64,000 bases of DNA from Thermodesulfobacteriota bacterium (GTDB lineage Bacteria; Desulfobacterota_D; UBA1144; Nemesobacterales; UBA2774), in NCBI GenBank assembly GCA_965223335.1, contig OZ244991.1, positions 2,240,001-2,304,000 of the forward strand, in the 5' to 3' direction. The stretch's first letter is position 1. Every line of letters starts with the position of its first letter. A program made the position numbers and the translations under genes. The notes under the pieces are model-generated. The model saw only the letters and a list, made by a program, of their open reading frames with translations, was not told the origin of the DNA and searched no databases. Shown piece by piece: positions 34,282 to 61,415 of the stretch.

Positions 34282-34698
34282 ATGGATATTGGCGACACAC
34301 GCGAGTACCTGATGTTCCTCCAGGTGGTCGACCCGGCCATAAAAGACGTCTCTATGGCCTACAGACTCACGCCGGGTTTCGAATCCTCCTACACCGACGA
34401 CCCTCTCAATCCCGACCCACGGGCCACCGAAAAGGTCACCATTGTCGAGGTAGGCCACGACTACAACATCCTCCAGCGCGCCATCTGGGTGCTCGACAAG
34501 CGCAAGAAAAAGCACAAAACCCACGTGCTCTACCTCCGCTGCAAGGTCCAGACGGGCTGGCTCGTGGTCATCGAGCCCGAAGAGCTCGAGTACTACCACA
34601 TGGAGCTAAGCGCGGTGGAGTTCGACGTCCTTCGCGACGTCCTGTTCGAGTTCCTACCCGAGCTCCCCGACACCGCTAATTTAAGGTTCTCTTACTAG
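34282..34698 (+). CDS. Hypothetical protein convergent with TMP-A
   Basis: 138 aa, GC-rich codon usage, TATAAT upstream, 3' end overlaps TMP-A stop. Confidence 0.6.
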   Translation: MDIGDTREYLMFLQVVDPAIKDVSMAYRLTPGFESSYTDDPLNPDPRATEKVTIVEVGHDYNILQRAIWVLDKRKKKHKTHVLYLRCKVQTGWLVVIEPEELEYYHMELSAVEFDVLRDVLFEFLPELPDTANLRFSY

Positions 34699-37600
34699 CT
34701 TTCTGTATCGCCCCTCTTATCTTCCCGCCTTTGTTTATGCTCCTTACGATCGCGTCCTCGATGCTTGCCGGCAGCGCCGCCACCGCAGCACTCGACCCAC
34801 CGTTCACATTCACATTGATGTTTATCTCTCCCCCGATCATACTCTCCTGCTGCCTCGGAGTCGCCACCAGCTCACCGAGCTTGGTCGCCTGCACCAGGTT
34901 CCTATGCAACATCGACTGATGCCCCTGATTAAGTATCAGCTCTTTCGGATGCAGTCTGGCCAGCCCCCCAGTCTCGGTATACCCACCGGTCATAAATTGC
35001 GGGATGTTTGTAAGCGCCCCCTTAATATCCTTAAGCACCGTCAGCTGCTCCTGATCGATCTGCACTATATCCCGGTTAAAGTCCGCTATCAGCTGCAGCC
35101 CCTCTATCTCGGTCCTTATACCCTCGGCCTCAAGCTCTTCCAGCTGTGCGAGCCTTTCCTCAAGTATCGCAATGGCTTCGTTGCGCATAAATTCAAACAG
35201 CTCCTGCACCCTCTCAGAAGCCTGGAACGTAGCCTGTACGTTCTGCGATCCTATTGCCGAGAGCCTATCCTGCAGGGCCTCTATACGCAGGTCGATGCTC
35301 TCGAGCATCACGTTTCGTTCGGCGTTTAGCCTCTCTATCTCGGCGTTTATCTCCTCCACCGAACGGCTTGCGTTCTCTGTAAACTCTGCAAGCGAGCTCA
35401 ACCCACCCGTAACCTGCTCAAATATCGCTACAAACTCGGGGCTGTTTACCCCAAAGGCGTCCCCTGCCAGGTCAAACAGTGTTTTAAATGCGTCCTCCAT
35501 CCTGCGTGCTATCTCTATCTGTCGCTCTGGGTCGTTCACCACCGCAAGCTCCTGCTGCAGTCCCACCAGCTCCCCCTGCAGCATGTTTATCTGCTCTACC
35601 GTTGTAAACACACTCTCTGCACTAAACACTATGCTCCGTAATGTTTCCCGGATACTCTCTGTCAGGCTCGCAAATTCCTCTGCAAGTCTCAGCTCCTCTT
35701 GCAGGGCCTCTATCCTTGTATCGAAGTTCTCTTCTATTAGGTCTTTCTCGCGCTCGAGTCCCGCTATCTGGCTCTCTATCCCCCTGCGTTGCGCTTGTGC
35801 TCTTGCCTCTGCTGCTGCCTGTGCAGCGGCCTGCTCCGCCTGCAACAGCCCCGTTGCCAGCGAGTTTAATTGTCCCAGCAGGCCCTCACGTTCCGATAGC
35901 GACAGACCCCCGCCCTCAAGGGCACCCTGTATCGAGTCTATGGCCTGGTTCATGTACCCCGTGGTGTCCACGGCCGTCCCACCAATGCTCACGATAGTAC
36001 TGTTCAGCTGGTCCACCACGCCTATTATGTTTATTACCGAGTCCACTATCTCTGTGCGCAGTGCGATTATGGCGTTACGAAGCTCCACAAAGTCCTGCAC
36101 GGTGCTTGCATCCAGCTCAACATTATTCAGCAGTTCCCTAAGCTTCGCATTAAACTCTTCAACCGACGGCACACCCTCAAACCCAAGCGTATCTGCAAGG
36201 CTCTTTACACTGTTTATGGCTGCTGTAATACTGTCCCCTGCGTTACCCTCTATGATGTTAAACGCATCTACAAATGCGCTAAAGTCTTCTAAGAGCTGCT
36301 GCCCTACCGCTGCCCGCTCCTCTCTACTGCTTGTGTTCTTAAAATCTTCTAATCTGCCCGCCAAAAACTCGCTTGCCGCCTCCGGCAATACACCCAACGA
36401 CTCAAATGCACCCTGCAAAAAGTCGTCTATTGCAAACAGGAATTTCGCTTGTAGCTCCCCGTTTATAAACTGCTCAAATTTTTTCTTGATCTCTTTCCCT
36501 TTAGCGTCAAATTCCAGGAACCTTTCACCCTTTATCACCGTGTCTATATCAAGCTGCGTGTTCGACAACTGTTCCCTAAGCGTTTCGGCCAATTCAGACG
36601 GCAGCCTGTTTATAATCTCAAGCACGTTGTCCGCAGCCTGCTGCAGTGTCTCCTGCAGTAACTCTTTTATCTTCTCATCCCCGCCTACGCCCAGTCCCGC
36701 CTTTCTCTTCACCGATATCTGTGCAATCTCATCTAAAAAGAAATCCTCATCCAATAGCTCTTTTACAAACGCCGCTCTGCGCCCCGCCTCTGTCTTTATC
36801 GAGTCAAAGTCCAGGTCGAGCCTCGGCTTTTTCTTAAGGAAACCTTTTATGAGACTAACCAGCGGTAGAGCCACCGATACTATTGCCCCCACCACTGGTA
36901 TCGCACTCGAAATAAAGGTCCCGATCCCCGCAAATGCCTTTCCCAATCCTGCCAATGCTCCTCCCGTGCCAAACAACCCCTTTACCGAGTCTATTATCCC
37001 GCTTACCCCGGGTATCTTGCTAAGCCCGCTTCCAATGGTCTTAAACCCCTGTCCTATGTCGAATAACCCTGCCAGGCCTTTAGCCCCGCCACCCCCTTGG
37101 GCTCCTGCTCCACCCCCCTGCACCTTGGGTTGCAACAGGTAGATTATCGGTTTCGATGCGATTGCCGCCACCAAGTCCGAGAACGACTTAAGGATTGAGT
37201 CCATAGTCGCATCCCAGAAATCACTCAAGCTGTCAAAGTTGCCTTTCAAGGTTTCGAATATCAGGTCGCCAAAGTTCTGGCTTATGTTCGCTACCACATT
37301 CGCCGCATACACCCCAAATTCATCAAGTATTCCCTTAGCCTCTTCAGTGCTCTTTTTAACATCTTCAGGAACCTGATCACTATCGTTCCCACTAGATATA
37401 GCGTATTCGAAAAAGAGCCCATCAAAGCCCTGCTCTTTTAACCTTTTATTTATCTCTTCTAATTTTCGTGCAGCCTCTTCCAGTTCCTCACGTGTCCATT
37501 CCCTAGTAGCTTTAGCGGCCTCGTTAATAGCATCTTCATTATCCTTCAGCTCACCCGTATTCTGCGCTACGTATTCTGTTAAGTTTTGTAACGTTACCCC

Positions 37601-38740
37601 TGCATCTTTAGTAGTTTGTGCAGCTACACCGTAGGTTTTAGCTACATTTTCTACTGTATTATTTAATTCTTTGTAATTAATTGTTGTGTCTTTTATAACC
37701 TTCAAGCCAGCCGGAAAATTATTCCCAATGCTTGTAAGCATTGTTTCAACATTCTCAAGCTGCTCTTCGACTGCTTCACCCTGTTTGTTGAAATCTTTAA
37801 TTGAGTTTATTGCTCCCTCTGTATCAATGTCTAACTTCTTTTCTATACCTCTGTTTTTACCTTCCCGATTTTCAAAATCTTTTATTTGTTGAACTGCACC
37901 TTCCTTATCAATTGTTATTTTCTTCTCAACTGGTATTTTGATTGGGTCAATATCATTAAATATCTGAAGGAGATCATTTAAATCAAGTTCTTTAGATACT
38001 TCTTCGTTGAGATTCTTAAATTGTTCTAATGGAAAAATATCTTCTATTGGTAGAACATAATTTTTAAGATCTTCTTTGTATCTATTTAGTGCTTCTATGC
38101 TTGCAGTTGGATCAATTAATTCTTGTATTTCTTTTTTCTTTGTTTCGATAGATTGTTTTAATTTCTCAATTTCTTCTGTATTTTTGTTGATCTCAAACTG
38201 AAGTGGATCGCTCCTCAGCACACGATCTTCTTTTATTATTTCAGGCGTTACTTGTATGTGCTTTAGTTGTTCTATACTTTCGTTTAGCAGTTTAATATTA
38301 TTTTCTATTGCTTTAATTTGTTCATCTGTAAGATTCTTGATACCTTTTCTACCTGCTTCTAATGATCTCTCAAGGTAATGTTTTATAATCTCAAATAAAA
38401 ATATTTGGAAATCGGCACCTATATTAGATCTAAACATATTACCAATCATGACATCTAATTGTTCAAGCCAGGCTCCAATTTCTAATGTTACTAAATCAAC
38501 TACATCCCTAATATAATTTTTTCTTCTTTGTATCCGTAAGGACTTATTGCGATTTTCAAGTTGTTCTATGTTTGAATTTATAGATTCTATATCGGATTCA
38601 ATACTTTTAACTTTGATTTGAATTTCGCGTTGGTCTAAATCTACAATGGATTTTTCTGTTACCTCTATCTTCTTATTAGCATCATCAAGAGCTCTATCAT
38701 CAACTTCAAATGCAAGTTGGTATGTTGATTTATAATTCAT
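34676..38740 (-). CDS. Tape measure protein allele A (full-length, 1354 aa)
   Basis: Long coiled coil, Gly/Ala amphipathic segment, C-terminal FMTGG...GLARLHPKELIL and ININVNVNGG typical of TMP ends; upstream of tail-tip genes. Confidence 0.85.
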   Translation of the reverse strand: MNYKSTYQLAFEVDDRALDDANKKIEVTEKSIVDLDQREIQIKVKSIESDIESINSNIEQLENRNKSLRIQRRKNYIRDVVDLVTLEIGAWLEQLDVMIGNMFRSNIGADFQIFLFEIIKHYLERSLEAGRKGIKNLTDEQIKAIENNIKLLNESIEQLKHIQVTPEIIKEDRVLRSDPLQFEINKNTEEIEKLKQSIETKKKEIQELIDPTASIEALNRYKEDLKNYVLPIEDIFPLEQFKNLNEEVSKELDLNDLLQIFNDIDPIKIPVEKKITIDKEGAVQQIKDFENREGKNRGIEKKLDIDTEGAINSIKDFNKQGEAVEEQLENVETMLTSIGNNFPAGLKVIKDTTINYKELNNTVENVAKTYGVAAQTTKDAGVTLQNLTEYVAQNTGELKDNEDAINEAAKATREWTREELEEAARKLEEINKRLKEQGFDGLFFEYAISSGNDSDQVPEDVKKSTEEAKGILDEFGVYAANVVANISQNFGDLIFETLKGNFDSLSDFWDATMDSILKSFSDLVAAIASKPIIYLLQPKVQGGGAGAQGGGGAKGLAGLFDIGQGFKTIGSGLSKIPGVSGIIDSVKGLFGTGGALAGLGKAFAGIGTFISSAIPVVGAIVSVALPLVSLIKGFLKKKPRLDLDFDSIKTEAGRRAAFVKELLDEDFFLDEIAQISVKRKAGLGVGGDEKIKELLQETLQQAADNVLEIINRLPSELAETLREQLSNTQLDIDTVIKGERFLEFDAKGKEIKKKFEQFINGELQAKFLFAIDDFLQGAFESLGVLPEAASEFLAGRLEDFKNTSSREERAAVGQQLLEDFSAFVDAFNIIEGNAGDSITAAINSVKSLADTLGFEGVPSVEEFNAKLRELLNNVELDASTVQDFVELRNAIIALRTEIVDSVINIIGVVDQLNSTIVSIGGTAVDTTGYMNQAIDSIQGALEGGGLSLSEREGLLGQLNSLATGLLQAEQAAAQAAAEARAQAQRRGIESQIAGLEREKDLIEENFDTRIEALQEELRLAEEFASLTESIRETLRSIVFSAESVFTTVEQINMLQGELVGLQQELAVVNDPERQIEIARRMEDAFKTLFDLAGDAFGVNSPEFVAIFEQVTGGLSSLAEFTENASRSVEEINAEIERLNAERNVMLESIDLRIEALQDRLSAIGSQNVQATFQASERVQELFEFMRNEAIAILEERLAQLEELEAEGIRTEIEGLQLIADFNRDIVQIDQEQLTVLKDIKGALTNIPQFMTGGYTETGGLARLHPKELILNQGHQSMLHRNLVQATKLGELVATPRQQESMIGGEININVNVNGGSSAAVAALPASIEDAIVRSINKGGKIRGAIQKASKRTLN

Positions 38741-38909
38741 GTTTTAGTTACGAGGTGTCACATTCAGCTATTATACGTTGTAATGTGCTCTCTACTCCTT
38801 GAAGTGATAAATTTATTGTTTGTGATATATGCTTGTTAACTTCAATTCTTAGACTAGTTAACTATTATGCGATATAGATTTTTGACTATTAATTATTTAT
38901 AATAAAGGT

Positions 38910-39236
38910 ATGCAGTATGTATGTCAGAAATGTTATTACAAAGGCAAACCAAAATATTCACACTTAAACAACTATCGCATACCAATAGGTGGTTTTTTTA
39001 TTGGATTTGGTATCTATATGGTTTCCCATTTGAGTAATTCATCTTTTGCTAATTCATATCCATTCATTTTTTACATATTATTTTGTTTTCCATTCGTTCT
39101 ACTCGGAGCATTCTTAATTTATAATTATCAGGATAATAACAGCGACTTGTGTCCAAAATGTTCCTATGGACATATGCTTCTGTTGAATACCGTAAAAGCA
39201 AATAAATTTATTCAAACAAACAACATAAAAATTTAG
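38910..39236 (+). CDS. CxxC-2TM-CxxC membrane protein (cassette 1a)
   Basis: CQKC, two hydrophobic helices, CPKC. Confidence 0.8.
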   Translation: MQYVCQKCYYKGKPKYSHLNNYRIPIGGFFIGFGIYMVSHLSNSSFANSYPFIFYILFCFPFVLLGAFLIYNYQDNNSDLCPKCSYGHMLLLNTVKANKFIQTNNIKI

Positions 39237-39258
39237 AAATTCTTAATATTGAGAACCT

Positions 39259-39630
39259 ATGCAGAAAATATGTATAAATTGTAATTATATTGGTAAAGAA
39301 ACATACAAGTACTCTTTTCTTATAATCCCAGGTATCTTGACATACCTTGGTCTGCAATTTGTGAAAGTATTCATGCTGGTATCACTTTTTAAAGTTTTAG
39401 GTGGAATAGTTTTTATTGCGATTGGTCTATATTCATTGATAATATTTGTAAGAAATAAAGAACAGTGTCCAAACTGCAACGGTTTCAGGACTATGATTCC
39501 CGTTGATACCCCTCATGCCAAGCGAATAATTGAAAAACATAATCTTACTATCCCAGATCAACTAGAAAGCAATCATGTAACTAGTCATACTCAAACAAGT
39601 TCTTCATCCCCCTTCCAATCCCCAAAATAG
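39259..39630 (+). CDS. CxxC-2TM-CxxC membrane protein (cassette 1b)
   Basis: CINCNYIG...CPNC...MIPVDTP.A; ends SSSSPFQSPK. Confidence 0.8.
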   Translation: MQKICINCNYIGKETYKYSFLIIPGILTYLGLQFVKVFMLVSLFKVLGGIVFIAIGLYSLIIFVRNKEQCPNCNGFRTMIPVDTPHAKRIIEKHNLTIPDQLESNHVTSHTQTSSSSPFQSPK

Positions 39631-39635
39631 CTGTT

Positions 39636-41789
39636 CTATCCACACCCTATCCCCATACTCTCATCCATTGCCTTATCCATGCTCTCTAACCTCTTCCCAT
39701 CATACACTTCATTGACTTCATCCACATTCCCTAACCCCCACGACCCCAATTTATCCCCTCCCTGTCGCTCATAAACTACATTTGCTTGCGGCCCCCACAT
39801 CTCTTCCCATGTAATATCTACAATCTCATCACTATAATCCATCTTTACAGCCTTAAGCCCGCTTCCAATGGTCTTAAACCCCTGTCCTATATCGAACAAC
39901 CCTGCCAGGCCTTTGGCCCCGCCACCCCCTTGGGCTCCGGCTCCACCACCCTGCACCTTGGGCTGCAACAGGTAAATGATCGGTTTTGAAGCAATTGCGG
40001 CCACCAGGTCCGAGAACGACTTTAGAATGGAGTCCATAGTCGCATCCCAGAAATCACTCAAGCTGTCAAAGTTACCCTTTAAGGTCTCGAATATCAGGTC
40101 GCCAAAGTTCTGGCTTATGTTCGCTACCACATTCGCCGCATACACCCCAAACTCGTTTAAACTATTTTTTGCTTGGCTTGTATCTTCATTAATCTTTTCC
40201 GCTACATCAGTGTTAACTTCAATATCTATGACACCCCCACCCGGAATTTCGTCATTAAGTAGTTCTCTTATCCTCTCCCGTAATTTTTCAAGTTCCTTCC
40301 TCGATAGATTTAATCCAAGAATTGCAAAATCTTGAGTTGACTTATTTGCTTCTAGCGTCAAATCGATATATTGTTCAATTAATCTTAGGTACTTAAGCAT
40401 ATCTTCATTTAATTCTTCGATATTTTCTTCCACATCCTCAGTACTAGCACCTACTAAATCCATACTTGTTGTAAAAGATGTTGAATTTTCTTCTGCAATT
40501 TTTTTGATTGTTTCAAATCCTCTATGCTGTTCTTCTGGGCCAATGAAAGGTATCAGTCCTTTAAAGTTAATACCCTTTAATTTATTAAAAACAGTTTCTG
40601 CTCCACTTCCAATCTTTCCTAATGCTGTACCTATTTTATTCACAGAGCTCTCTAATATTGGTACTATTTCTTCCTCCCAGACTATCTCAGAGTTTAATTT
40701 AATCGCTTCCCAATTATCTATAATTGTAAGTACACCGGCTGCAATTCCTGATAGACTGGCACCTACTAAAGTGAATTTCCCAATTGGCGAGGTAGCAAGC
40801 AATCTCAATCCATGCAACAAAGTACTAAGCCCTATACTTATATTCTTAGTTTTAGATACGAATTCTGCGACACTTTTTGTAACTTTATTGTTTGCTAATA
40901 TAGCTCCAAATTTTCTTATACTTTCAGTGATTTTTGAGAAGTCTACATTCGCGAGTTGATCTAATTTTATTTTGCCAGCTTCCTTAAGAGATCTGAGACC
41001 TTGTATCAGCTTGCCCCATTCTGCACGTGCACCTTCACCAATTGCTTTAAAGAAGTCTCTTACTCTATCGACTCCAGCTTTTGAGAAATCTCTCACCGTG
41101 CCTGCAAATTCTTTTAATCTATCAAACCCTCTTGATCCAAATTCTTTTGCCCGCCCGAGAAAATTTACAATATTATCGTATTGTGCCTTTCCACCTTCTT
41201 TTAGTGATCTGAGAAAGTCTTTAAAATTATAATAGTTAATCGAAACAAGATCCTTTATATCACTCCCGAGGCGTTTAAACACACCACCAACCCCTTGTTT
41301 CTCAAAAATATTACGAATGGTTTTAATATAATTTTCTGCAAATACCCTTGTGACTTCTAATGTTGTGCGCGTATGTTGTATTAATTCTCTATTTTTAAAG
41401 AAACCCAGCAACACATCATCTAATGCACCAAATGCTATTTCTAGAACTTCAGTTACTTCTGCAAAAGATATCCCTATTATTGGGCCTATAATTGATAATT
41501 CTTCAGCCTTCTCAATCAAATTATCTATAAACTCACTAAATGTACTTATAGTTTTTTCTTGATCTAGTCCAAACGTCTCAAATTCGTCCCTATTTCCAGC
41601 ACCTTTTGTTGTTAATTCCTGCAGTTTCTTATTGGTGGTGTCTATCTCTCCATTAAATTGTTCAAAAGTACTTCGACTCTTTTCTGCGACTTTTTCAATA
41701 TCATCCCCGGCTTTCTCAGTTTCATCCTTCAATTGTTCAAGAGCTTTGGTATCAGTTACAACCTTGAGAGTCAAATTTGTTATTTCCAT
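39636..41789 (-). CDS. TMP allele B (C-terminally truncated, 717 aa)
   Basis: Unique N-term; shares EFGVYAANVVANISQNFG...GFKTIGSGL with A, then short DYSDEIVDITWEEM tail. Confidence 0.8.
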   Translation of the reverse strand: MEITNLTLKVVTDTKALEQLKDETEKAGDDIEKVAEKSRSTFEQFNGEIDTTNKKLQELTTKGAGNRDEFETFGLDQEKTISTFSEFIDNLIEKAEELSIIGPIIGISFAEVTEVLEIAFGALDDVLLGFFKNRELIQHTRTTLEVTRVFAENYIKTIRNIFEKQGVGGVFKRLGSDIKDLVSINYYNFKDFLRSLKEGGKAQYDNIVNFLGRAKEFGSRGFDRLKEFAGTVRDFSKAGVDRVRDFFKAIGEGARAEWGKLIQGLRSLKEAGKIKLDQLANVDFSKITESIRKFGAILANNKVTKSVAEFVSKTKNISIGLSTLLHGLRLLATSPIGKFTLVGASLSGIAAGVLTIIDNWEAIKLNSEIVWEEEIVPILESSVNKIGTALGKIGSGAETVFNKLKGINFKGLIPFIGPEEQHRGFETIKKIAEENSTSFTTSMDLVGASTEDVEENIEELNEDMLKYLRLIEQYIDLTLEANKSTQDFAILGLNLSRKELEKLRERIRELLNDEIPGGGVIDIEVNTDVAEKINEDTSQAKNSLNEFGVYAANVVANISQNFGDLIFETLKGNFDSLSDFWDATMDSILKSFSDLVAAIASKPIIYLLQPKVQGGGAGAQGGGGAKGLAGLFDIGQGFKTIGSGLKAVKMDYSDEIVDITWEEMWGPQANVVYERQGGDKLGSWGLGNVDEVNEVYDGKRLESMDKAMDESMGIGCG

Positions 41790-41804
41790 CTTTGTTCTCC
41801 ATAA

Positions 41805-41841
41805 AAAAAGCCGACAATTAAGCTATTTAATTGCCGGCTTT
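41805..41841. terminator. Inverted repeat/terminator between TMP-B and its partner
   Basis: aaaagccgacaattaa-gctat-ttaattgccggctttt. Confidence 0.6.
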
Positions 41842-41882
41842 TGCATCTAGAATTTTATTTTCTATATAGTTATTCTCTTTAT

Positions 41883-42656: not shown

Positions 42657-42667
42657 TTGGATATAAC

Positions 42668-43336: not shown

Positions 43337-43356
43337 ACCTCAAAACAAATATATCT

Positions 43357-45315: not shown

Positions 45316-45395
45316 TTACATCTCCCCTTATGAAACAATTATCTTAAAAAAAAACGCGTCTAGTTTATTATTTTCACAAAAGTTATAATTTTGTT

Positions 45396-46169: not shown

Positions 46170-46174
46170 TCCAG

Positions 46175-46194
46175 TTATCCACATCTTTTCCACA
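46175..46194 (+). repeat. Junction 20-mer TTATCCACATCTTTTCCACA (tandem DnaA-box-like)
   Basis: Copies at 46175, 47165, 52865, 53858, 54937, 57549, 60073 (last base T), 61066. Confidence 0.9.
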
Positions 46195-46197
46195 CCT

Positions 46198-52017: not shown

Positions 52018-52095
52018 TTATACCACCTCATATAACATCACAAATCCTCATATTTGTATCTAGTTAATTAGTTTCTAAAAAGTTATAATTTAAAT

Positions 52096-52860: not shown

Positions 52861-52887
52861 TCCTTTATCCACATCTTTTCCACAGCC

Positions 52888-53001
52888 CTATTCCCCTATT
52901 TCATTAATCGAATACATTGCTTTTTCCGCTTCTTCCGATAGTTGTTTTATAGCACTTGTGTCTACTGAAAATTGTAGACTAATCTCATTCATTTCAGGCA
53001 T
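52888..53001 (-). pseudogene. TMP stub, 37 aa (MPEMNEISLQFSVDTSAIKQLSEEAEKAMYSINEIGE)
   Basis: Head joined to MYSINEIGE, matching the short-tail ends (KVMYSIN / AINEIGE). Confidence 0.8.
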
Positions 53002-53079
53002 TTATACCACCTCGCATAACATCGCAAATACTGATATTTGTATCTAGTTAATTAGTTTCTAAAAAGTTATAATTTAGGT

Positions 53080-53853
53080 ATGAAATCGATTTGTATTAGT
53101 TGTCACACAATTAGCGAGCTAAAGAAGGTTAGAGAATGTAATCACATGTCAACTGGGTTGCATTTTGTTGGAGCTGCGTTGTGTATCCCGTTTGGTCTAC
53201 TATTCCCAATATTATTCATTGGTACATTCTTCTTTGTAATAAAAGGAATTATTCATTTAGCAGCTTGCTATGATACTATGAGTCTTTGCCCAGAATGCAA
53301 TACTAGAAATGTGCTTCCGGCGGATTATTTCCTATCAAATGGCATTGAACTTGATGATCGCATTTCTAAAGAAGATTTACAGATTAAAGTTCTTGAATAC
53401 GGTAAAATCGGGTCATATCTTATATATAAACGAATTAGGGCATGTACATTCTGCAACTACATAGGTTTTAATTCAGGTCAGCAAAAGTATAGTTTTATTA
53501 TGGGAGTACTAACTTTTGCACTTGCCCTTTTATTCATTCCATTGGCAAAGATTCATACTCTTCTATTAATTGGAAGCTATATTTATTTTTTCACAGGATT
53601 ATTTCTAATATATATTTCACTGCTAGATTCAAGAGAATGTCCAAAATGTGAAAATAAATCACTCATTCCTATTGATTCTAGGGGTGGGAAATTTATTATA
53701 GAAGAAAAAGGTTTTAATCTTAGCAGTCCTATAAAATCATCTCATATACCAATGCTGGAATATCATTTCGGTATAAAGCTATTTTTTACTTTGGTAGTAA
53801 TATCTCTCTACATCTACTACCGCCTCTTCCTCTACTTCAATTCCCTAAACTGA
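53080..53853 (+). CDS. Double CxxC-2TM-CxxC membrane protein (cassette 6)
   Basis: Paralog; 5' part nearly identical to 60288 gene. Confidence 0.82.
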   Translation: MKSICISCHTISELKKVRECNHMSTGLHFVGAALCIPFGLLFPILFIGTFFFVIKGIIHLAACYDTMSLCPECNTRNVLPADYFLSNGIELDDRISKEDLQIKVLEYGKIGSYLIYKRIRACTFCNYIGFNSGQQKYSFIMGVLTFALALLFIPLAKIHTLLLIGSYIYFFTGLFLIYISLLDSRECPKCENKSLIPIDSRGGKFIIEEKGFNLSSPIKSSHIPMLEYHFGIKLFFTLVVISLYIYYRLFLYFNSLN

Positions 53854-53880
53854 GCCTTTATCCACATCTTTTCCACAACT

Positions 53881-54219
53881 TTATTCCCCAATTTCTTGAC
53901 TGTATTTAATGTTACTATGTCCTGCCGTATTAATCGAATACATCACTTTATCTATGTCTCCTAACCACCTATCATTACTCACTTCATTAACTTCATCCAC
54001 ATTCCCTAACCCCCACGACCCCAATTTATCCCCTCCCTGTCGCTCATAAACTACATTTGCTTGCGGACCCCACATCTCTTCCCATGTAATATCTACAATC
54101 TCATCACTATAATCTGTTTTTACCGCCACCAGGTCCAGGAACGACGTCAATATTGCTTTAAAAGTACTCTTTACAATGTCCTTCAGGTTGTCGAACTTCC
54201 CTGTAACTACAATTAAAGA
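53881..54219 (-). pseudogene. Orphan TMP tail fragment
   Basis: ...VVTGKFDNLKDIVKSTFKAILTSFLDLVAVKTDYSDEIVDITWEEM...; divergent version of the shared KGNFDSL..SFSDLVA box; in-frame stop upstream. Confidence 0.7.
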
Positions 54220-54239
54220 TCATATGCTATCATAAACTG

Positions 54240-54383
54240 CTACTTATCCACACTTTTTGCTAAATCCTGATACTTTTTTAATTCTTTTTCATCAAGATCA
54301 ATGCCTATCTGAATTTCAGGCAATTTTTTCAAGTCACTATCATCAAGATTGATTTTTAACGCAAGTTCTGTCATTTCTGGCAT
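54240..54383 (-). pseudogene. TMP stub, 47 aa (MPEMTELALKINLDDSDLKKLPEIQ...)
   Basis: TMP-like head with GGAG RBS, divergent from 54561. Confidence 0.7.
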
Positions 54384-54560
54384 ACTTAATCTCCATCTAA
54401 TATGATAAAATCTATTAATATCTAGTCCTTTTATAATGTAGAGATATTGTTTATCTGTGATATGTGATCCAACCTATAATTAGATATGTATTTGATCGTA
54501 GTATTGCAGTAATGTATAGTTAAATAGTACATTCTAGAATAATCGTAATAGAGTTCTGAT

Positions 54561-54932
54561 ATGCAAAAAATCTGTAAAAACTGTTCATATATTGGGTTAG
54601 AATCCAAGTATAATGAACTAATATTTTTCGTTGCTTTATTTGGGCTGATTTACTCAGGTTCACATATTATTACCGATTTTGGTGTTACAACTTTCTGGTT
54701 TTTTGTCTATGTAGCCATGTTATTGGCATCAATTTATTGTCTTATCCTGTATTTTGTTAATCGCGATAACTGTCCAAATTGTAATCATCCGAACACAATG
54801 ATCGAGATAAACACCCTGGAAGGACGAAAACTAATCACAGATCTCTATTTCACCGATTCTAATGTTGAATCAATCGAGCCTACCGAATCCAGCACCGAAC
54901 CTTCCTCCTCCCCCTTCCAATCCCCAAAATAG
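54561..54932 (+). CDS. CxxC-2TM-CxxC membrane protein (cassette 7)
   Basis: CKNCSYIG...CPNC; ends PSSSPFQSPK. Confidence 0.8.
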   Translation: MQKICKNCSYIGLESKYNELIFFVALFGLIYSGSHIITDFGVTTFWFFVYVAMLLASIYCLILYFVNRDNCPNCNHPNTMIEINTLEGRKLITDLYFTDSNVESIEPTESSTEPSSSPFQSPK

Positions 54933-54959
54933 CCCTTTATCCACATCTTTTCCACAGCC

Positions 54960-56171
54960 CTATTCCCCAATTTCTTGACTATTATTTCTCCCTACTTTAT
55001 TAATCGAATACATCACTTTATTTATGCCTCCTAACCACTCATCATTACTCACTTCATTTGCTTCAACCATATCTGTTAGCCCCATAGTCTCCATCTCTTC
55101 CCATGTCACATCCACAATCTCATCACTATAATCTGTTTTAATCGCTTCCCATGCGTTCGCCGCAGTTTCTTTTATAGCCTCCCACTGTTCCCCCAGCCAC
55201 GATGTCAGCCGTTCGTATTGCTGTCCTATCCACTCAACACCAGCCGTTGCTTTCTCCGTAACGAAATTCCATGCTATTTCAGCCCCTGCCTTAAAATTAT
55301 CCCATATAAATAGCACTGCATCCCCTATCAGTCCTATTGCATACGCAATATTCTCCGCCGCAGACTCAATAAGCGGCACTATATTCTCTTCCCAGGTTAT
55401 CTGTGCAGCTAATTTAAGCTCATCCCAATGGTCTATTACTGCTCGTACACCCAGATATATTCCTCCAAGCGCCGCTACTACTAAACCTATTTTAAGTACT
55501 AGTGCACCACCTAAGAACGTTCCTACTGCTCTTATAACGTTCAAAAACAGACCAAACGCCCTGGATTTCCCAATAATTTTAAATAGATTTAGCAGTCTGC
55601 TGCCTAAGTTCTTTATCACTTCAAGTACTGATTTTAACCTTGGCACCAGTGACTTTATTCGATCCCTAATGCTTGTTATCACATTTTTTAATTTGTTAAA
55701 ACTTTCTTTAGGATTTACTACCGTAGTCCCGATTAATTTCAATGCACCGGCTAGAGATCTTAATATCCTTACAATCCCAACAAAACCAGAAAAAGTGATA
55801 AACAACTTGCCTCCAAGTGTATCTGCTTCCGTTATGTTTTTAATCCACTCTTTTATCCCATCGATAAAACCGCCAAATACTACATCAAAAGCAGATTTAG
55901 TATTTTTTGATTCATTAGCTAAATCTTTAATACTGTTTTTTGCCTGATCTGTAGATTGCTGTATCGATTGAGCAAATGTACTGTCACTATTTATCTTTTG
56001 TATGTTTTTCCCAAATAGCTCGAGTTCTTTATTTAAATTGTTGAATGTAGAAGTTACATCTAAAGTAGAGTTGTTAAAGGACTCTAGCGACTTCTCAGAA
56101 TCAGCTTGAAACGCTTTAAAACCATCAGAGTTTACACTTACATTGACTTCCAAATCTTTAACTTCAGCCAT
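54960..56171 (-). CDS. TMP allele E (truncated, 403 aa)
   Basis: MAEVKDLEVNVSVNSD head; IDHWDELKL..ITWEENIVP like B; W-x10 periodic repeats (IWDNFKAG.EIAWNF..WEAIKETAANAWEAIK); short tail. Confidence 0.8.
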   Translation of the reverse strand: MAEVKDLEVNVSVNSDGFKAFQADSEKSLESFNNSTLDVTSTFNNLNKELELFGKNIQKINSDSTFAQSIQQSTDQAKNSIKDLANESKNTKSAFDVVFGGFIDGIKEWIKNITEADTLGGKLFITFSGFVGIVRILRSLAGALKLIGTTVVNPKESFNKLKNVITSIRDRIKSLVPRLKSVLEVIKNLGSRLLNLFKIIGKSRAFGLFLNVIRAVGTFLGGALVLKIGLVVAALGGIYLGVRAVIDHWDELKLAAQITWEENIVPLIESAAENIAYAIGLIGDAVLFIWDNFKAGAEIAWNFVTEKATAGVEWIGQQYERLTSWLGEQWEAIKETAANAWEAIKTDYSDEIVDVTWEEMETMGLTDMVEANEVSNDEWLGGINKVMYSINKVGRNNSQEIGE

Positions 56172-56261
56172 TTTTGCCCCCTAGATGATTATTTTTATAA
56201 TTGAAATCTGAATGTGTATTGTTAACTAGAATAATTATTTCTTATTAGTTACAATAAGTTA

Positions 56262-57095
56262 ATGCAACATATTTGTATTGATTGTCACCATATTGGAAAA
56301 GGAAAAGACCAATTAAGTTACAACAAAGTAGATATATTAATTTACTTAGTACCAGCTCTAATCTGCACTGTTATAGCATTTATCTACCCTATCGCTTTGA
56401 TAGGTACATTTATACTTATATTTGCACTGACAGGAATATTAAGTAGTCCTTATGCTTTTGTTGATCAATGTCCGGAATGCTCTAAAATTATGTATCCTAT
56501 CGATAGCCCTCAAGCTCAAAAAGTTATCCGAGACAATGATATAAATTATGATGCTTCTTCAGTGTCCAGAACCAATTTCATAGATAGGTTTCACAAGATA
56601 CGTCAGATTAAAACACAAATTTGTCTTAATTGTCAGCATATTGGAGTTGGTCGTCATCAAGAAATCTGTAATTTAATGGAAGTTTTTCTAAATCTCCCAT
56701 TGGCAATTATCACAATACCGTTGGCATACATTACCCCTTATTCCCTTATTGGTTCATTTCTATTTGCATATTTGGGGCTGGGTGCGTTGTTTCAGTGTTT
56801 TGTAAAGTCCGATACTTGTCCCATTTGTAAGAAAAAAAAGATGATCTCTCTAACTTCTTCGGAGGCTGATAGATTTATAAAAAACAATAATATAGAATTT
56901 CAATTAGAAAATGCTGATACTAAGCCATTTTTTTTGAATGAAACATTTAATATACTAGTATTTACAGCTTTATTTTTTGTAACACTTTATTACTATTACA
57001 TATTATTTGTACACTTTAGTAATGGTATAGATCCTTTAGATATGCTATATCAATATATTTACGATGTGCTAGACAATATATCCACTAGATTATAA
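56262..57095 (+). CDS. Double CxxC-2TM-CxxC membrane protein (cassette 8a)
   Basis: CIDC..CPEC and CLNC..CPIC. Confidence 0.8.
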   Translation: MQHICIDCHHIGKGKDQLSYNKVDILIYLVPALICTVIAFIYPIALIGTFILIFALTGILSSPYAFVDQCPECSKIMYPIDSPQAQKVIRDNDINYDASSVSRTNFIDRFHKIRQIKTQICLNCQHIGVGRHQEICNLMEVFLNLPLAIITIPLAYITPYSLIGSFLFAYLGLGALFQCFVKSDTCPICKKKKMISLTSSEADRFIKNNNIEFQLENADTKPFFLNETFNILVFTALFFVTLYYYYILFVHFSNGIDPLDMLYQYIYDVLDNISTRL

Positions 57096-57120
57096 TTTCT
57101 AAATATTATATAATTATTAA

Positions 57121-57543
57121 ATGCAAAAGGTATGTCGCAGTTGCCACTTCGTAGGTAAAGGCAAAAACAGCTGGTTTGATGGTAATATTTTCTTTGGACT
57201 TATTACAGTTGCAATTGGTATTGGCGTTTTAGTTACGGGTTACTTCTCTTTCTTATCTCATACTATAAAAATTATATTCGGTATATTTTTAATAATTACA
57301 GGCATCTATGACATTATAAAGTTTTATATAGGCGGTCCTATCTGTCCTAATTGCAAGAAAAGAGAGATGCTTAATATCGACGATCCTAAAGCTATCGAAT
57401 TGGTTAAGAACCTAGACCTAATAGTAGGACAAAACCCTACCCAGGTCACCGATAACACCCCGTTAGATCCACCACCTCCGCCCTCCACTTCCTCCGAATC
57501 CTCCACCGACCCTTCCTCCTCCCCCTTCCAAACCCCAAAATAG
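57121..57543 (+). CDS. CxxC-2TM-CxxC membrane protein (cassette 8b)
   Basis: CRSC..CPNC; ends PSSSPFQTPK. Confidence 0.8.
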   Translation: MQKVCRSCHFVGKGKNSWFDGNIFFGLITVAIGIGVLVTGYFSFLSHTIKIIFGIFLIITGIYDIIKFYIGGPICPNCKKREMLNIDDPKAIELVKNLDLIVGQNPTQVTDNTPLDPPPPPSTSSESSTDPSSSPFQTPK

Positions 57544-57571
57544 CCTTTTTATCCACATCTTTTCCACAGCC

Positions 57572-59593
57572 CTATTCCCCAATTTCATTAATCGCATAGA
57601 TTACTTTATCTATATCATATAACCACCTATAATCACTCAGATCATTGACCTCATCTGTCTTCCCTAACCCCCACGATCTTATTTTGTCCCCTCCCCGTCT
57701 CTGATCAACTACATTCGCTTTCGTTCCCCACATCTCTTCCCACGTAATATCCACAATCTCATCACTATAATCTGTTTTTACCGCCACCAGGTCCGAGAAC
57801 GACTTTAGCATCGAGTCCAGTGTCGCATCCCAAAAATCACCCAAGCTGTCAAAGTTGCCTTTTAAAGTTTCGAATATCAGGTCGCCAAAGTTCTGGCTTA
57901 TGTTCGCTACCACATTCGCCGCATACACCCCAAACTCGTCAAGTATTCCCTTAGATGCCTCAGTACCCCTTTCAACTCCTTCCGCCATCTCCTCAATTTC
58001 CTGCCCGCTTGGTAGATTGATTTCAGGGGTTAATCCAAATTTAGCTAGGGTATTATTTACCTCTATTAACTTATTCCCCGCCGCTTCCAGCTCCTCACTG
58101 GTCCACTCCCTTGTTGTTCGAGCTAACCCAGTTATAGCTGTTTCGTTATCTGATATTTTGTTTGTGTTCTGAGCTATAGCAGAATTGAAATTGTTCAATG
58201 CCCCTTCTGCATTATGTACTTGTTCGGACACATTCTTAAAATTCTCTGCTGTTTCATCACCCGCAATTCCCCCACCCGGGGTTTCAATATTACCGGTTCG
58301 AACTTGGTCCATTAAGTCCAACATTTCATCTAATGCATCATTAACAAGTGGTAAAGACCCGCTGCCAAATCCGTGTGTGGACTTATCGATGGATTCTATT
58401 ACGTTCTCGAACCTTTCTAATTGAAGAGTCTGGTTTATTAAGTCTAGATATACGTTATCTATGTTTTCACTTGGAATTTGCCCATAATCGATATCTAGGC
58501 TTATCCCCTGTTCTGTGGTTTTTTGTAGTTGTTGGTATGCTTCTGTGTTATCGTCAACTACATTGCGCATCTCGTTCAACTCTTTGGTAGTTTGCGGGAT
58601 CCCTTCATTTCCAAATTTGCCAATTGCCTCACCAGCATTATTAACTGCTTCAGCAGTTTGTTCTGAGGTTGTCCCCAGAATATTCATGCCATTGTTAAAC
58701 AACTCAATACTTTCACCACCACCCTCTAGGGTTGCACTTTGGAATTTCAATGTGCTTGTAAATTGTTCAACCATTTTTCCTGTCTGGTCAACGTTGTAAC
58801 CAATATCGGCAAAAGCATCTTTGGCTTTATTAAGATCTTCCGAATTTCTAAAGATTTCTTCGTTTGCCATCTTCTGGACATCAATAGTATCAGAAAGGAC
58901 ACCTCTCAAATTTGAGTAGGCATTTTCGACTTCGGATAATTGTTGACTCCTTTCATTTGTTATGCGACTGGTGGCATCAAGAATATCTTGTAATTCTTTT
59001 TCTAATGGTCCAATGACATCCACATAATTATATTCAATTGAAATAGGTACAGGTATACGTTGTGGAGGCGTAATTATATTAGAGGATGTCCCACTGCCTG
59101 CATCGACTTTGAATGTTGTTAAATCCTCTTCAATATCCTTTAATTTCTCAAGAAATATGCCTAGTGCCCTAATTCTTTCTAGAATTATATCCTTATCTAA
59201 TGGTAAGTTTGTCAATCCATCGTTAAGACTAGGATCTTCTCCTATTTCTTCAACTTCCCTCAATAAATCTCTTGCTTGTCTACGCAGGGTAACTACAGTG
59301 CTTTGTAATTCTTCTAATCTAACTAAATCTGGCTTATACTGTTTATAGCTCCTTCTAATATAATCTATAGTCAAACTTGCAATTAACCCAATAATAGTGC
59401 TGATAATTATATCTACACCGAAACCTGCTTTATTTATTTGCAAGTCTGCTTCTGCAGATTGTACGTGGTTCTTAACTTGAGATGAGTTAATTGATTGTAT
59501 CTGTTTTAGAATCTTGTCTAGTTCTCGTTGATTTTCCTTCAGTCTAGAAAGATCTAAATCAAAAAATATTTGAAATACACTACTTTCGTTCAT
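57572..59593 (-). CDS. TMP allele F (truncated, 673 aa)
   Basis: Unique N-term; joins C/D sequence at MDQVRTGNIE.PGGG; shared EFGVYAAN box; short tail. Confidence 0.8.
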   Translation of the reverse strand: MNESSVFQIFFDLDLSRLKENQRELDKILKQIQSINSSQVKNHVQSAEADLQINKAGFGVDIIISTIIGLIASLTIDYIRRSYKQYKPDLVRLEELQSTVVTLRRQARDLLREVEEIGEDPSLNDGLTNLPLDKDIILERIRALGIFLEKLKDIEEDLTTFKVDAGSGTSSNIITPPQRIPVPISIEYNYVDVIGPLEKELQDILDATSRITNERSQQLSEVENAYSNLRGVLSDTIDVQKMANEEIFRNSEDLNKAKDAFADIGYNVDQTGKMVEQFTSTLKFQSATLEGGGESIELFNNGMNILGTTSEQTAEAVNNAGEAIGKFGNEGIPQTTKELNEMRNVVDDNTEAYQQLQKTTEQGISLDIDYGQIPSENIDNVYLDLINQTLQLERFENVIESIDKSTHGFGSGSLPLVNDALDEMLDLMDQVRTGNIETPGGGIAGDETAENFKNVSEQVHNAEGALNNFNSAIAQNTNKISDNETAITGLARTTREWTSEELEAAGNKLIEVNNTLAKFGLTPEINLPSGQEIEEMAEGVERGTEASKGILDEFGVYAANVVANISQNFGDLIFETLKGNFDSLGDFWDATLDSMLKSFSDLVAVKTDYSDEIVDITWEEMWGTKANVVDQRRGGDKIRSWGLGKTDEVNDLSDYRWLYDIDKVIYAINEIGE

Positions 59594-59680
59594 GTTTACC
59601 TCTTATTCTGGATATGTGTTAATGTTAATTAGTTACTAAAGTGTCTTGGTATTTGGTTTTATTTTAGATATAATATTTTT

Positions 59681-60067
59681 ATGGCTTATGTATGCCCTAA
59701 ATGTTTATATTTAGGAGATTCCAACTATCGCTATCATTCCAAATATCTTGATGCTGGATTTGTGATCATAGTACTTGGAGCTTTTTTATTTGTAGTGCAT
59801 GTTTTGACTCCTGGCTCTTCTGCGTTATCTGTAATGCTCACATTAATCATTATAGCAAGTGGTGTTTATATTATATACATGAATAGACAAGGCAGAATCT
59901 GTTCAAAGTGTAATTTTAACGGTGTGCTTTCTACGGATACTGCTGATGCGCTGGACTTAATCAAAAAGTACGACCTAGAACCTGGTGACAATACCAATAA
60001 GAGACCAATCTCCACTTCTCCCTCTACAGACTATACTAACACCTCCCCCTTCCAATCCCCGAAATAA
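59681..60067 (+). CDS. CxxC-2TM-CxxC membrane protein (cassette 9)
   Basis: MAYVCPKC..CSKC; ends TSPFQSPK. Confidence 0.8.
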   Translation: MAYVCPKCLYLGDSNYRYHSKYLDAGFVIIVLGAFLFVVHVLTPGSSALSVMLTLIIIASGVYIIYMNRQGRICSKCNFNGVLSTDTADALDLIKKYDLEPGDNTNKRPISTSPSTDYTNTSPFQSPK

Positions 60068-60095
60068 CCCACTTATCCACATCTTTTCCACTGCC

Positions 60096-60209
60096 TTATT
60101 TCCCTATTTCATTAACCGATTCAGATGCTTTTTCTGCGTCTTGTGATAGCTGTTTGATCTGACTTGTGTCCACAGAAAAATGAAGACTAATCTCATTCAT
60201 TTCAGGCAT
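60096..60209 (-). pseudogene. TMP stub, 37 aa (MPEMNEISLHFSVDTSQIKQLSQDAEKASESVNEIGK)
   Basis: Near-identical to 46198-46311. Confidence 0.8.
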
Positions 60210-60287
60210 TTATACCACCTCGTATAACATCGCAAATACTGATATTTGTATCTAGTTAATTAGTTTCTAAAAAGTTATAATTTAGGT

Positions 60288-61061
60288 ATGAAATCGATTT
60301 GTATTAGTTGTCACACAATTAGCGAGCTAAAGAAGGTTAGAGAATGTAATCACATGTCAACTGGGTTGCATTTTGTTGGAGCTGCGTTCTTTATCCCGTT
60401 TGGTCTACTATTCCCAATATTATTCATTGGTACATTCTTCTTTGTAATAAAAGGAATTATTCATTTAGCAGCTTGCTATGATACTATGAGTCTTTGCCCA
60501 GAATGCAATACTAGAAATGTGCTTCCGGCGGATTATTTCCTATCAAATGGCATTGAACTTGATGATCGCATTTCTAAAGAAGATTTACAGATTAAAGTTC
60601 TTGAATACGGTAAAATCGGGTCATATCTTATATATAAACGAATAAAAGTATGCACTTTCTGCCAATATATTGGGTTAAATTGGGAACAACAACATTTTAG
60701 TTTGATTATGGGGTCACTATTTCTTGGGGCATCACTATTATTTGTACCACTAGCACAAATCAATCCTCTACTGTTAATATTGAGCTATATCGCTATGTTT
60801 TTTGCGATATCAATCATACTAGCATCATTAAGTAATTCAAAAAAATGTCCTAAATGTGAATATAAATCACTTATTCCTATTGATTCTAGAGGCGGGAAAT
60901 TTATTCTAGAAGAAAAGAGTATCAATTTTAGTACACCGATTAGGTCATCTCGTATCCCAACTATATCTTACGATAATGGCATATTTTATACTGCATTTAT
61001 ATTAATATTAGCTACCTACATCTACTACCGCTTATTCCTCTACTTCAACTCCCTAAATTAA
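60288..61061 (+). CDS. Double CxxC-2TM-CxxC membrane protein (cassette 10), mosaic
   Basis: 5' part matches 53080 gene, 3' part matches 52096 gene, unique middle. Confidence 0.82.
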   Translation: MKSICISCHTISELKKVRECNHMSTGLHFVGAAFFIPFGLLFPILFIGTFFFVIKGIIHLAACYDTMSLCPECNTRNVLPADYFLSNGIELDDRISKEDLQIKVLEYGKIGSYLIYKRIKVCTFCQYIGLNWEQQHFSLIMGSLFLGASLLFVPLAQINPLLLILSYIAMFFAISIILASLSNSKKCPKCEYKSLIPIDSRGGKFILEEKSINFSTPIRSSRIPTISYDNGIFYTAFILILATYIYYRLFLYFNSLN

Positions 61062-61088
61062 TCCTTTATCCACATCTTTTCCACAGCC

Positions 61089-61415
61089 CTATTCCCCAAT
61101 TTCTTGACTATTATTTCTCCCTACTTTATTAATCGAATACATCACTTTATTTATGCCTCCTAACCACTCATCATTACTCACTTCATTTGCTTCAACCATA
61201 TCTGTTAGCCCCATAGTCTCCATCTCTTCCCATGTCACATCCACAATCTCATCACTATAATCTGTTTTTGCGGCCACCAGGTCCGAGAACGACGTCAATA
61301 TTGCTTTAAACGTATTCTTTACAATGTCCTTCAGGTTGTCGAACTTCCCTGTAACTACAATTAAAGATCATATGCTATCATAAACTGCTACTTATCCACA
61401 CTTTTTGCTAAATCC
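61089..61415 (-). pseudogene. Terminal orphan TMP tail fragment
   Basis: 61089-61267 copies the E tail (54960-55138); 61270-61415 copies ~54122-54267. Confidence 0.75.

Follow-up and report, generated by a model that had tools for sequence, protein, structure and literature searches.

A prophage array of tape-measure genes and divergent membrane-protein partners as a candidate superinfection-exclusion locus

Recent work on HK97 gp15, T4 Imm and SNIPE puts the phage tape-measure protein (TMP) at the centre of genome entry and of defence against entry. Passages of the HK97 study place gene 15 between the tail chaperone and TMP genes and describe its product as an inner-membrane exclusion protein that keeps out the DNA of phages of its own type, with tail-dependent specificity (PMC3594210). 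T4 Imm is presented as a small membrane protein that excludes superinfecting phage via TMP binding (bioRxiv 10.64898/2026.03.06.709160), and SNIPE as a membrane-bound nuclease that associates with the lambda TMP and exploits it during genome injection (PMC13190303). For phi80 TaiEcA/AtiEcA, sections of the published account report a defence gene that lies antisense in the late operon, next to a linked sense-strand gene (PMC11364771). Here we analyse a stretch of 64,000 nucleotides from a Thermodesulfobacteriota bacterium (GenBank assembly GCA_965223335.1, contig OZ244991.1, positions 2,240,001 to 2,304,000; hereafter the window), in which positions 34676-61415 hold an array of TMP-like genes and divergent small genes, the partners. 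The window genome is labelled G000 and the contig that carries the window C1; labels with G and L denote the genomes and loci of relatives.

Six TMP-like open reading frames (ORFs) lie on the minus strand of the array, two of full length (A and D) and four short (B, C, E and F). The plus strand carries thirteen partner ORFs, five of them single-module (108-140 aa) and eight double-module (222-277 aa). An earlier note on this DNA had described ten divergent units with 13 intact membrane-protein genes; our ORF map reproduced all of the units and ORF positions, and 13/13 plus-strand ORFs were open. With a probability of roughly one in two, we propose that the partners are superinfection-exclusion proteins, expressed in the lysogen and directed at the TMP, that accumulated together with displaced TMP heads by recombination at shared core blocks and by local duplication. 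TMP-directed exclusion or immunity is the most economical account because of the position of the partners, their accessory status, the selection acting on them, their conserved flanks and their persistence after phage decay.

The array and the partner family

Read from the tail genes inwards, the array begins with the full-length TMP A (34676-38740, minus strand, 1354 aa), which is the copy joined to the tail-tip genes, and its two single-module partners (38910-39236, 108 aa, and 39259-39630, 123 aa; plus strand, as all partners are). The short TMP B (39636-41789, 717 aa; minus strand, as are all TMP ORFs, stubs and remnants) is accompanied by two double-module partners, 41883-42656 (257 aa, the ORF opening with TTG at 41841) and 42668-43336 (222 aa), and the short TMP C (43357-45315, 652 aa) by one (45396-46169). 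A stub micro-ORF of 37 aa (46198-46311) with a double-module partner (46390-47160) follows. Between this partner and the second full-length copy, TMP D (47782-52017, 1411 aa), lies a non-coding spacer of ~620 bp (47161-47781), 3' of D, which bears no likeness to the genes downstream of A. The partner of D (52096-52860) and that of the next 37-aa stub (52888-53001), at 53080-53853, are both double-module. A 3' TMP remnant, s1 (53881-54150), a head stub micro-ORF of 47 aa (54240-54383) and a partner (54561-54932) precede the short TMP E (54960-56171, 403 aa), which has a double-module partner of 277 aa (56262-57095) and another of 140 aa (57121-57543). The short TMP F (57572-59593, 673 aa) with its partner (59681-60067), a third 37-aa stub (60096-60209) with a double-module partner (60288-61061) and a second 3' remnant, s2 (61089-61298), bring the array to its end near 61415. 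All genome matches of the 21 partner modules of G000 fall inside the array (21/21), as do all those of TMP A in the 2.71-Mb genome (5/5). GC content is 0.55-0.57 at the 3' ends of A and D but drops to 0.29-0.35 in the heads and partner genes; this profile and the DNA self-comparison agree with the AT-rich, divergent TMP heads and shared internal blocks noted earlier.

Four public runs from one study, which represent at most two samples and may include the source sample, hold ~0.9 of the sampled words. Their contigs cover 30/30 bins of 41500-61450 in every run, depth is of the same order throughout, and the longest listed contig pieces over unique parts have zero mismatches. The run contigs break at the shared blocks, so the order of the units is without independent confirmation: the units exist, and their order rests on a single 2.67-Mb contig. 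An assembly artefact that inflated the number of units would draw on these breaks in short-read contigs and on the want of a second source for the order. However, each unit has a long stretch unique to it, none of the 30 bins lacks coverage in any of the four runs, and the contig extends over 2.67 Mb; with synonymous divergence (dS) between partners mostly above 1, the units are also too divergent for an artefact of collapse or expansion, which we regard as extremely improbable. A further contig of the assembly, C3 (9.2 kb), has a GC content of 74%, against 46-47% for the other two, and may not be part of this genome.

Each partner module runs in the order CxxC, two transmembrane (TM) helices, CPxC and helix. 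In the alignment of 28 single-module members, five from the window and 23 from loci of seven relatives, four cysteines never vary, and the second pair of them is followed by a conserved helix. In 16 double-module sequences (seven of the window's eight and nine database representatives), 8/8 cysteines are invariant. An AlphaFold2 model built from the 28 aligned rows (predicted local distance difference test 77.1; predicted template-modelling score 0.49) shows a beta-hairpin, helices at 18-38 and 44-66, a strand and a helix, and a hydropathy scan found one to five hydrophobic segments in all 13 window partners. Pairwise identity among these is 24-77%. Their ratio of non-synonymous to synonymous divergence (dN/dS) is 0.13-0.85, below 0.6 in all computable pairs but one, with dS mostly above 1; this range speaks for purifying selection and against the neutral decay that had been raised earlier as a concern.

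No Pfam family reached its curated cut-off on any of the 13 window partners or the 28 family members, which returned weak zinc-ribbon or membrane matches only. PADLOC defence models matched 0/8 partners, PHROGs and NCBIfam gave no convincing match, and partner 39259 found no match by tblastn against 50,697 phage records. Fold searches were unspecific, with a best E of 1.9 from Foldseek against the PDB, a best E of 0.053 in BFVD (a phage 'zinc binding domain' protein) and a best Z of 7.3 in a wide VIA-align search, which returned generic helical hairpins. Two candidate families were rejected: DUF2614 (PF11023/PRK02935), which one of the 28 members matched with 20.1 bits against a cut-off of 21 (NCBIfam twin: 19.3 against 108), and TIGR04104 (cxxc_20_cxxc), matched by one of the 28 at E 7.8e-4, below the curated cut-off; the nearest Atlas cluster has the latter name (score 0.91). 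The LITAF-like zinc domain suggested in the earlier note did not survive as a family assignment. The partners resemble PF10601 in having CxxC, a hydrophobic membrane hairpin and a second cysteine pair, but the model matched 0/13 and 0/28 of them, and a LITAF-like cluster came at rank 30 (score 0.84) in a language-model search; the likeness is architectural only.

A profile search of 1.84 billion entries returned 804 cluster representatives at E <=0.001, 144 at 1e-10 and 13 at 1e-30. Judged from sequence, the partner family is real but rare, and it is new. A tree of 85 modules (115 columns) was weakly resolved, with 14/82 inner branches starred. It distributes the G000 modules over several subfamilies common to other genomes, and five double-module genes (45396, 46390, 52096, 53080 and 60288) have their N- and C-modules in starred clades made up of G000 sequences alone, which indicates that old diversity and local duplication both contributed. 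Relatives of the unit A partners form a neighbouring pair in G004, L033 and L057 and one fused gene in G013.

Mosaic tape-measure genes

PHROG tape-measure families matched C, D, E and F with E values of 1e-7 to 2e-11; A and B had no PHROG match at 1e-3. Over 1003 aa, A and D are 76% identical, and a central block is common to B, C and F as well. The array lies between a 92-aa gene and A, in a gene order like that of viral contig L029 and the other loci, where the TMP occupies the same position. The identification of A and D as TMPs therefore held, for D by PHROG profile and for A by identity to D and gene position. At the sequence level, hydrophobic segments at residues 613-631 of A and 669-687 of D each follow a glycine-rich stretch. 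The tails of A and D have dN/dS values of 0.03-0.18 at dS 0.28-1.27, which argues that both were shaped as working proteins.

The TMP core block, our proposed recombination handle, lies at 37021-37321 (minus strand) and has copies at 39854-40154, 43509-43683, 50210-50391 and 57778-57982, with DNA identities of 89-94%. DNA self-comparison matched 37021-37321 with 39854-40154 (93%), 43509-44745 with 50232-51468 (94.7%) and 43462-44085 with 57731-58354 (90%). Overall, shared TMP blocks of 160-1237 bp, all in the same orientation, are 93-95% identical amid surroundings of 60-75%. Older segmental duplications pair 45170-47184 with 51872-53877 (68%) and 52842-54267 with 60049-61415 (82%). A codon-level comparison of C with D gave 38-52% identity and dS 0.76-1.7 over residues 1-200, and from residue ~208 to 607 the identity is 90-98% per 100-aa block. 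Similar mosaic joins occur in F, which equals C and D from residue ~441, and in B, whose end is A's own sequence.

Such a structure could also serve head switching. The short TMPs would then be silent, and core-block recombination, by deletion or conversion, would give the working TMP a new N-terminus, through which the particle could evade exclusion or alter what it needs for entry; partners would move along with the heads, each lysogen excluding its own type. The common orientation of all TMP copies, the shared blocks (93-95% amid 60-75%), the mosaic joins in C, F and B and the two full-length copies under purifying selection (dN/dS 0.03-0.18) are consistent with it, as are the start codons kept in short copies and stubs, most with a Shine-Dalgarno-like site. 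Nevertheless, the contigs contained no recombinant junction (three joints were reported, with 32-34 nt on the shorter side, at repeats). No portal or integrase was recognised over ~72 kb, and the element may not make particles. The stubs and remnants look like head decay rather than upkeep, and decayed elements in relatives retain partners, not heads. The reservoir of heads that the earlier note had offered as one of three models is thus mechanically possible, given same-orientation blocks of 160-1237 bp with 93-95% identity, and shows no sign of use; we consider head switching rather unlikely.

B, C, E, F, s1 and s2 all close in a shared block of ~60 residues that A and D lack. This end block (54914-55139, minus strand; copies at 39600-39852, 43385-43542, 53823-54150, 57518-57803 and 61043-61298) forms the alternative C-terminus of the short TMPs, all of which join it in frame, and also the 3' flank of partner genes, its DNA reaching the stop codon of the converging partner gene. 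C, F, s1 and s2 pass into the end block behind the core block and B ~50 residues later; E, which has no core block, enters it from unrelated sequence. The earlier statement that only A and D are full length is thus correct for these two, but the others are not mere truncations, having a conserved alternative C-terminal block. Three stubs of 37 codons fuse TMP codons 1 to ~33 with the last end-block residues, and the fourth, which also holds TMP codons 1 to ~33, has 47 codons.

The end block of B, F and s1 contains a 51-bp in-frame insert (39700-39750, 57640-57690 and 54000-54050). No donor gene for the end block was found elsewhere in the genome, and only a middle piece of ~25 residues, within the insert, has weak copies on the contig. 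These lie at ~20 places in C1 2323247-2496754, almost all on the minus strand, and the insert looks like a small dispersed repeat within ~200 kb of the contig. The 9-mer TTATCCACA, which we take to be the DnaA-box consensus, has 65 copies on C1, on both strands. Eleven of them fall in the 27-kb array, all on the plus strand (46175-61392), and 7/11 follow a partner stop codon by no more than 10 nt, in the shared end block; they may reflect repeat inheritance or a bound site.

The hydropathy scan detected extra hydrophobic segments in heads B to F and none in the first 600 residues of head A. Pfam, PHROG and PADLOC-type scans found no toxin family above cut-off on any TMP head, so membership of the polymorphic toxins (Rhs or contact-dependent inhibition (CDI) type) by toxin domain was rejected; against PADLOC, the TMPs gave only chance-level coiled-coil matches. 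These results bear on the idea of self-protection, in which a hydrophobic TMP N-terminus damages the inner membrane of the producer, the partner acts as immunity protein in the style of pore-forming colicins, and orphan partners guard against the particles of neighbours. The extra segments in heads B to F, the membrane hairpin of the partner and the resemblance of the array to polymorphic toxin loci with orphan immunity genes would suit this idea, and part of the T4 Imm preprint draws an analogy with colicin immunity (bioRxiv 10.64898/2026.03.06.709160). Yet the head joined to the tail genes is that of A, free of such segments over 600 residues, close TMP relatives exist without partners, and the antisense position speaks against co-expression with the late operon. 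The earlier model of a toxic head neutralised by its partner gained no direct support: the scans revealed no toxin domain, and partners persist without a TMP. Toxin-immunity in general appears decidedly unlikely.

Partner and TMP starts are separated by gaps of 78-169 bp. These gaps share a box, with a TATAAT-like hexamer, whose end lies 6-9 nt ahead of the partner ATG, and a Shine-Dalgarno-like site precedes most TMP starts, those of stubs included. Comparison of the 46390 and 60288 units shows 100% identity over the upstream 170 nt and 71% in the coding part, with the switch at the start codon. Each partner may thus have its own promoter just before its start codon. The stretch that separates the TMP B start from that of its partner (41790-41882) contains a GC-rich inverted repeat, preceded by an A run and followed by a shorter T run; it resembles a bidirectional terminator, which would be unexpected at this position. 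Rfam found no family in 33000-64000, and neither tRNA nor transfer-messenger RNA (tmRNA) was found in the window or 13 loci.

The antisense arrangement recalls Tai-like interference, in which short TMPs or partners would poison the tail assembly of competitors and the sense short ORFs or a late antisense transcript would switch this off for the element's own tails. In its favour, an antisense gene stands beside a sense gene in the late operon, as in the phi80 taiEcA/atiEcA non-contiguous operon described in part of the phi80 paper; the same sections, however, report Tai escape mutations in the central tail fibre or needle, not the TMP (PMC11364771). No sequence link to the Tai system was apparent, though no test was aimed at one. 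Stubs of 37 aa are moreover unlikely inhibitors, and we judge this explanation very improbable.

The element and its relatives

The array makes up 27 kb of a siphophage-type element of ~72 kb. Downstream of A, on the minus strand, are genes for a 264-aa tail protein (32640-33434), a Gp80-like fibre protein (30297-31082; PF23140, E 1e-72), a 1157-aa tail-tip protein (26820-30293) and an endolysin (25513-26181). A 160-bp tandem repeat (33865-34232; 2.3 copies, 95% matches) occupies part of the 1.2 kb that separate the TMP A stop from the 264-aa gene; in L029 the two genes abut, with no such gap. Upstream of the array are two plus-strand secreted-protein genes, genes of 81, 111, 92 and 189 aa and the tube protein gene (PF18906, 494 aa), and further upstream tail terminator, neck, major head, scaffold and large terminase genes (phrog_38, E 3.5e-111), with a host gene for a BD-FAE hydrolase beyond. 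Within the element, two plus-strand genes of 323 and 376 aa (61845-63980) separate the array from the chaperone-like genes; their products have signal-peptide-like starts and no family match, and that of the 376-aa gene ends in a Pro/Gly-rich tail. Neither a portal nor an integrase could be recognised in the element (window and 40 kb upstream), and from its gene content it is probably defective. An integron-type cassette array was rejected on the missing integrase, over the same range, and on the varying TMP truncation points. Host genes at 4048-7473 and 9240-9680 encode a Chlamydia-PMP-repeat/DUF7151 protein (833 aa), a Kazal-type inhibitor and an I78 inhibitor.

Related loci were gathered with the TMP alignment as query; their record titles name Candidatus Dadabacteria, Thermodesulfobacteriota, 'delta proteobacterium' and Spirochaetia metagenome-assembled genomes (MAGs). 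A single partner query matched in 16/41 genomes, G000 included, and in 13/24 other same-family genomes. The partner profile matched in 25/120 genomes of the phylum and 20/32 other same-family genomes, with 21 modules in G000 and 8, 6 and 6 in the next. In G004 a TMP is accompanied by four divergent partners, two TMP units occur in each of G002 and G013, and in G021 and G019 partner clusters precede the TMP. Among viral contigs, L027 carries three TMP ORFs with two partners between them and L030 one partner with TMP pieces, and many further units of antisense partner and TMP occur on genome and metagenome contigs. The search in relatives that the earlier note had put forward as a check thus turned up both single units and arrays, with two TMPs (G002, G013) or three (L027).

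Three of five viral contigs (L028, L029 and L031) carry a related TMP without a partner, as does L032 (Thermodesulfobacteriota) in the DNA examined. Because close TMP relatives occur without partners, the partner is accessory. Gene order in L029 is tube (494 aa), 189 aa, 92 aa, TMP, 264 aa, Gp80-like and ~1250 aa; partners, where present, lie between the 92-aa gene and the TMP.

Several relatives hold decayed elements. G018 has four intact partners and no TMP, with remnants of the 92- and 189-aa genes and the endolysin. G001 has five partners, and its truncated TMP is fused to a homologue of the gene at 23670-24032 of the window; G005 has a double-module gene and a second divergent match, without a TMP. 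As these three elements retain partners, partners outlast the phage. Genes for extracytoplasmic function (ECF) sigma factors and/or SpoIIAA-like proteins flank the element in G000 and the partner loci of G004, G001, G018 and G005, which places all five at the same chromosomal locus. In L016 (G001), a SMODS-domain gene at 16733-17614, of the nucleotide synthase family of the cyclic-oligonucleotide-based antiphage signalling system (CBASS) type, adjoins a decayed partner/TMP remnant, which hints that the partner locus of G001 serves as a defence island.

Outside G000, 34 short TMP-like ORFs have a complete 3' end, and 21 of them, in 16 loci, close with a tail of the ..EYRLAA type; such tails occur among L020, L027, L030, L033, L035, L036 and L042-L060. 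The tail joins at A-equivalent positions ~842 (15 cases), ~533-600 (3), 568 and 816, that is, at no fewer than four truncation points, and after the stop come a TATATATA run and a hairpin like those of repetitive extragenic palindromic (REP) elements. The other 13/34 mostly look like frameshifted pieces or other TMP types. Since the host tmRNA tag, AETDFALAA, ends in ..ALAA, the ..LAA tail could be an ssrA-like ClpXP degron that clears displaced heads. This would apply to the relatives only; the end block of the window ends otherwise and shares with the ..EYRLAA tail a 12-nt likeness only.

A bolder version of the exclusion model takes these tails in. The locus would be a polymorphic entry locus in mirror image, in which an N-terminal membrane-active TMP module and its cognate zinc-ribbon immunity protein are exchanged as a lock-and-key cassette through TMP recombination handles; the element would stack exclusion specificities and draw on spare heads, and relatives would send displaced heads to ClpXP by the ssrA-like ..LAA tail. 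We offer it tentatively and find it rather unlikely.

Proposed exclusion and its likeness to known systems

For the exclusion reading that we prefer, a mechanism can be outlined. The partner would be a small inner-membrane protein in which the halves of a split zinc ribbon (CxxC ... CPxC) flank a TM hairpin and are followed by a short cytoplasmic helix. In the membrane, and in the manner of HK97 gp15 and T4 Imm, it would act on the TMP of an incoming related phage and block opening of the DNA channel. The proposed cassette consists of end block, partner, promoter, TMP head and core, with TMP-homologous sequence on both sides. Two crossovers with the resident TMP would insert it, so that the previous head, now terminated by the end block, would remain upstream as a short ORF, and recombination between direct core repeats could remove cassettes again. 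Later deletions would trim heads to stubs as selection retained the partners, and one partner subfamily would also have multiplied by local duplication. This scheme fits the loci because truncation points vary, D has its own 3' flank, joins are mosaic and the blocks are homogenised. A complex prediction for residues 1-260 of D with partner 52096 gave a median of 0.31 against a mark of 0.32 (controls: 0.00), a result that counts neither for nor against binding.

Of the three models in the earlier note, an archive of exclusion genes captured with the 5' ends of their TMPs fits best and is partly supported. In its favour, the partners are intact, accessory and antisense, evolve under purifying selection, occupy the gp15 position and outlast the TMP; on the other side, one five-gene subfamily was duplicated locally, and no donor of the D, E or B head turned up. 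Capture from foreign phages is plausible rather than demonstrated.

Several points weigh against exclusion. We infer that the partners are expressed in the lysogen, bind zinc, adopt the proposed membrane topology, act on the TMP and exclude phages. Word-based, length-limited searches, which are weak evidence, found no homologue outside G000 for head D (residues 1-260), short TMP E or, among longer proteins, head B, and thus no phage with a D, E or B head as working TMP. The structural model places nearly all of the partner in membrane or cytoplasm, so it would have to meet the TMP within the bilayer or at the inner face. The link between partner and head may be mere physical linkage in a recombination unit, and comparison of the partners with gp15/YebO, Imm, SieA and PADLOC models revealed no link in sequence or fold. 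Sigma-70 and terminator consensus scans of 38500-47900 gave counts no higher than in shuffled sequence, and for this reason the promoters, too, are something we infer. Outside the window, and leaving out four contigs fetched twice, 26 loci contain 33 partner clusters: a divergent TMP-like start lies no more than 400 bp from 16 of them, and of the remaining 17, three have a TMP-like ORF 460-850 bp away (L016, L020, L022) and several lie in decayed or non-phage surroundings. Solo partners in non-phage surroundings occur at L023 and L026.

These solo genes, together with the absence of a defence-family match and the defective look of the element, would fit decaying duplicated DNA in a grounded prophage with no phage role, the partners being host membrane proteins, for example in envelope stress or metal handling. 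But 21/21 modules of G000 lie within the array, the partner position at the TMP start recurs in genomes and in viral and metagenome contigs, and the partners combine extreme divergence, purifying selection and conserved flanks, as conflict genes typically do. We hold such a host role to be distinctly unlikely, and the general idea of a phage-tail conflict locus, put forward earlier, stands.

If the exclusion reading is true, thirteen diverged partners beside matching heads form a specificity matrix for finding which part of the TMP exclusion proteins read, and a rare new partner family has a recurring gene position beside the TMP start. Structural phage genes could then form orphan-cassette arrays as polymorphic toxins do, and phage-conflict biology would extend to Dadabacteria, a phylum represented here by MAG records only.

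Among described systems, HK97 gp15 resembles the partner in being a small membrane protein, and the partner likewise lies between a chaperone-like gene and the TMP. The partner differs from it in its four-cysteine split zinc ribbon and two TM helices, its antisense position and its occurrence in up to 13 copies with TMP fragments; membership by sequence was rejected, no YebO model being among the weak Pfam matches of the 13 and 28 partners. T4 Imm has four helices and no zinc ribbon, is a single gene, which is not known to lie next to the TMP gene, and has no sequence match to the partners. SNIPE is a nuclease, whereas the partners have no enzymatic domain. The phi80 Tai system blocks tail assembly via the central fibre or needle, and it has neither a membrane zinc ribbon nor an array. 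As far as general knowledge of them goes, Rhs and CDI loci share with the array a full-length gene and displaced variable modules, each with a core fragment, beside a small, intact and variable partner gene. The orphan modules of the window likewise keep a core fragment beside a small variable partner, in mirror image: here it is the N-terminus that varies, a divergent partner lies upstream of it, there is no toxin domain, and the long protein is a structural protein of the virion. The literature searched contained no description of a TMP orphan-cassette architecture. What is known is thus the prophage moron for TMP-directed exclusion, and what is new here is the protein family and the orphan-cassette architecture.

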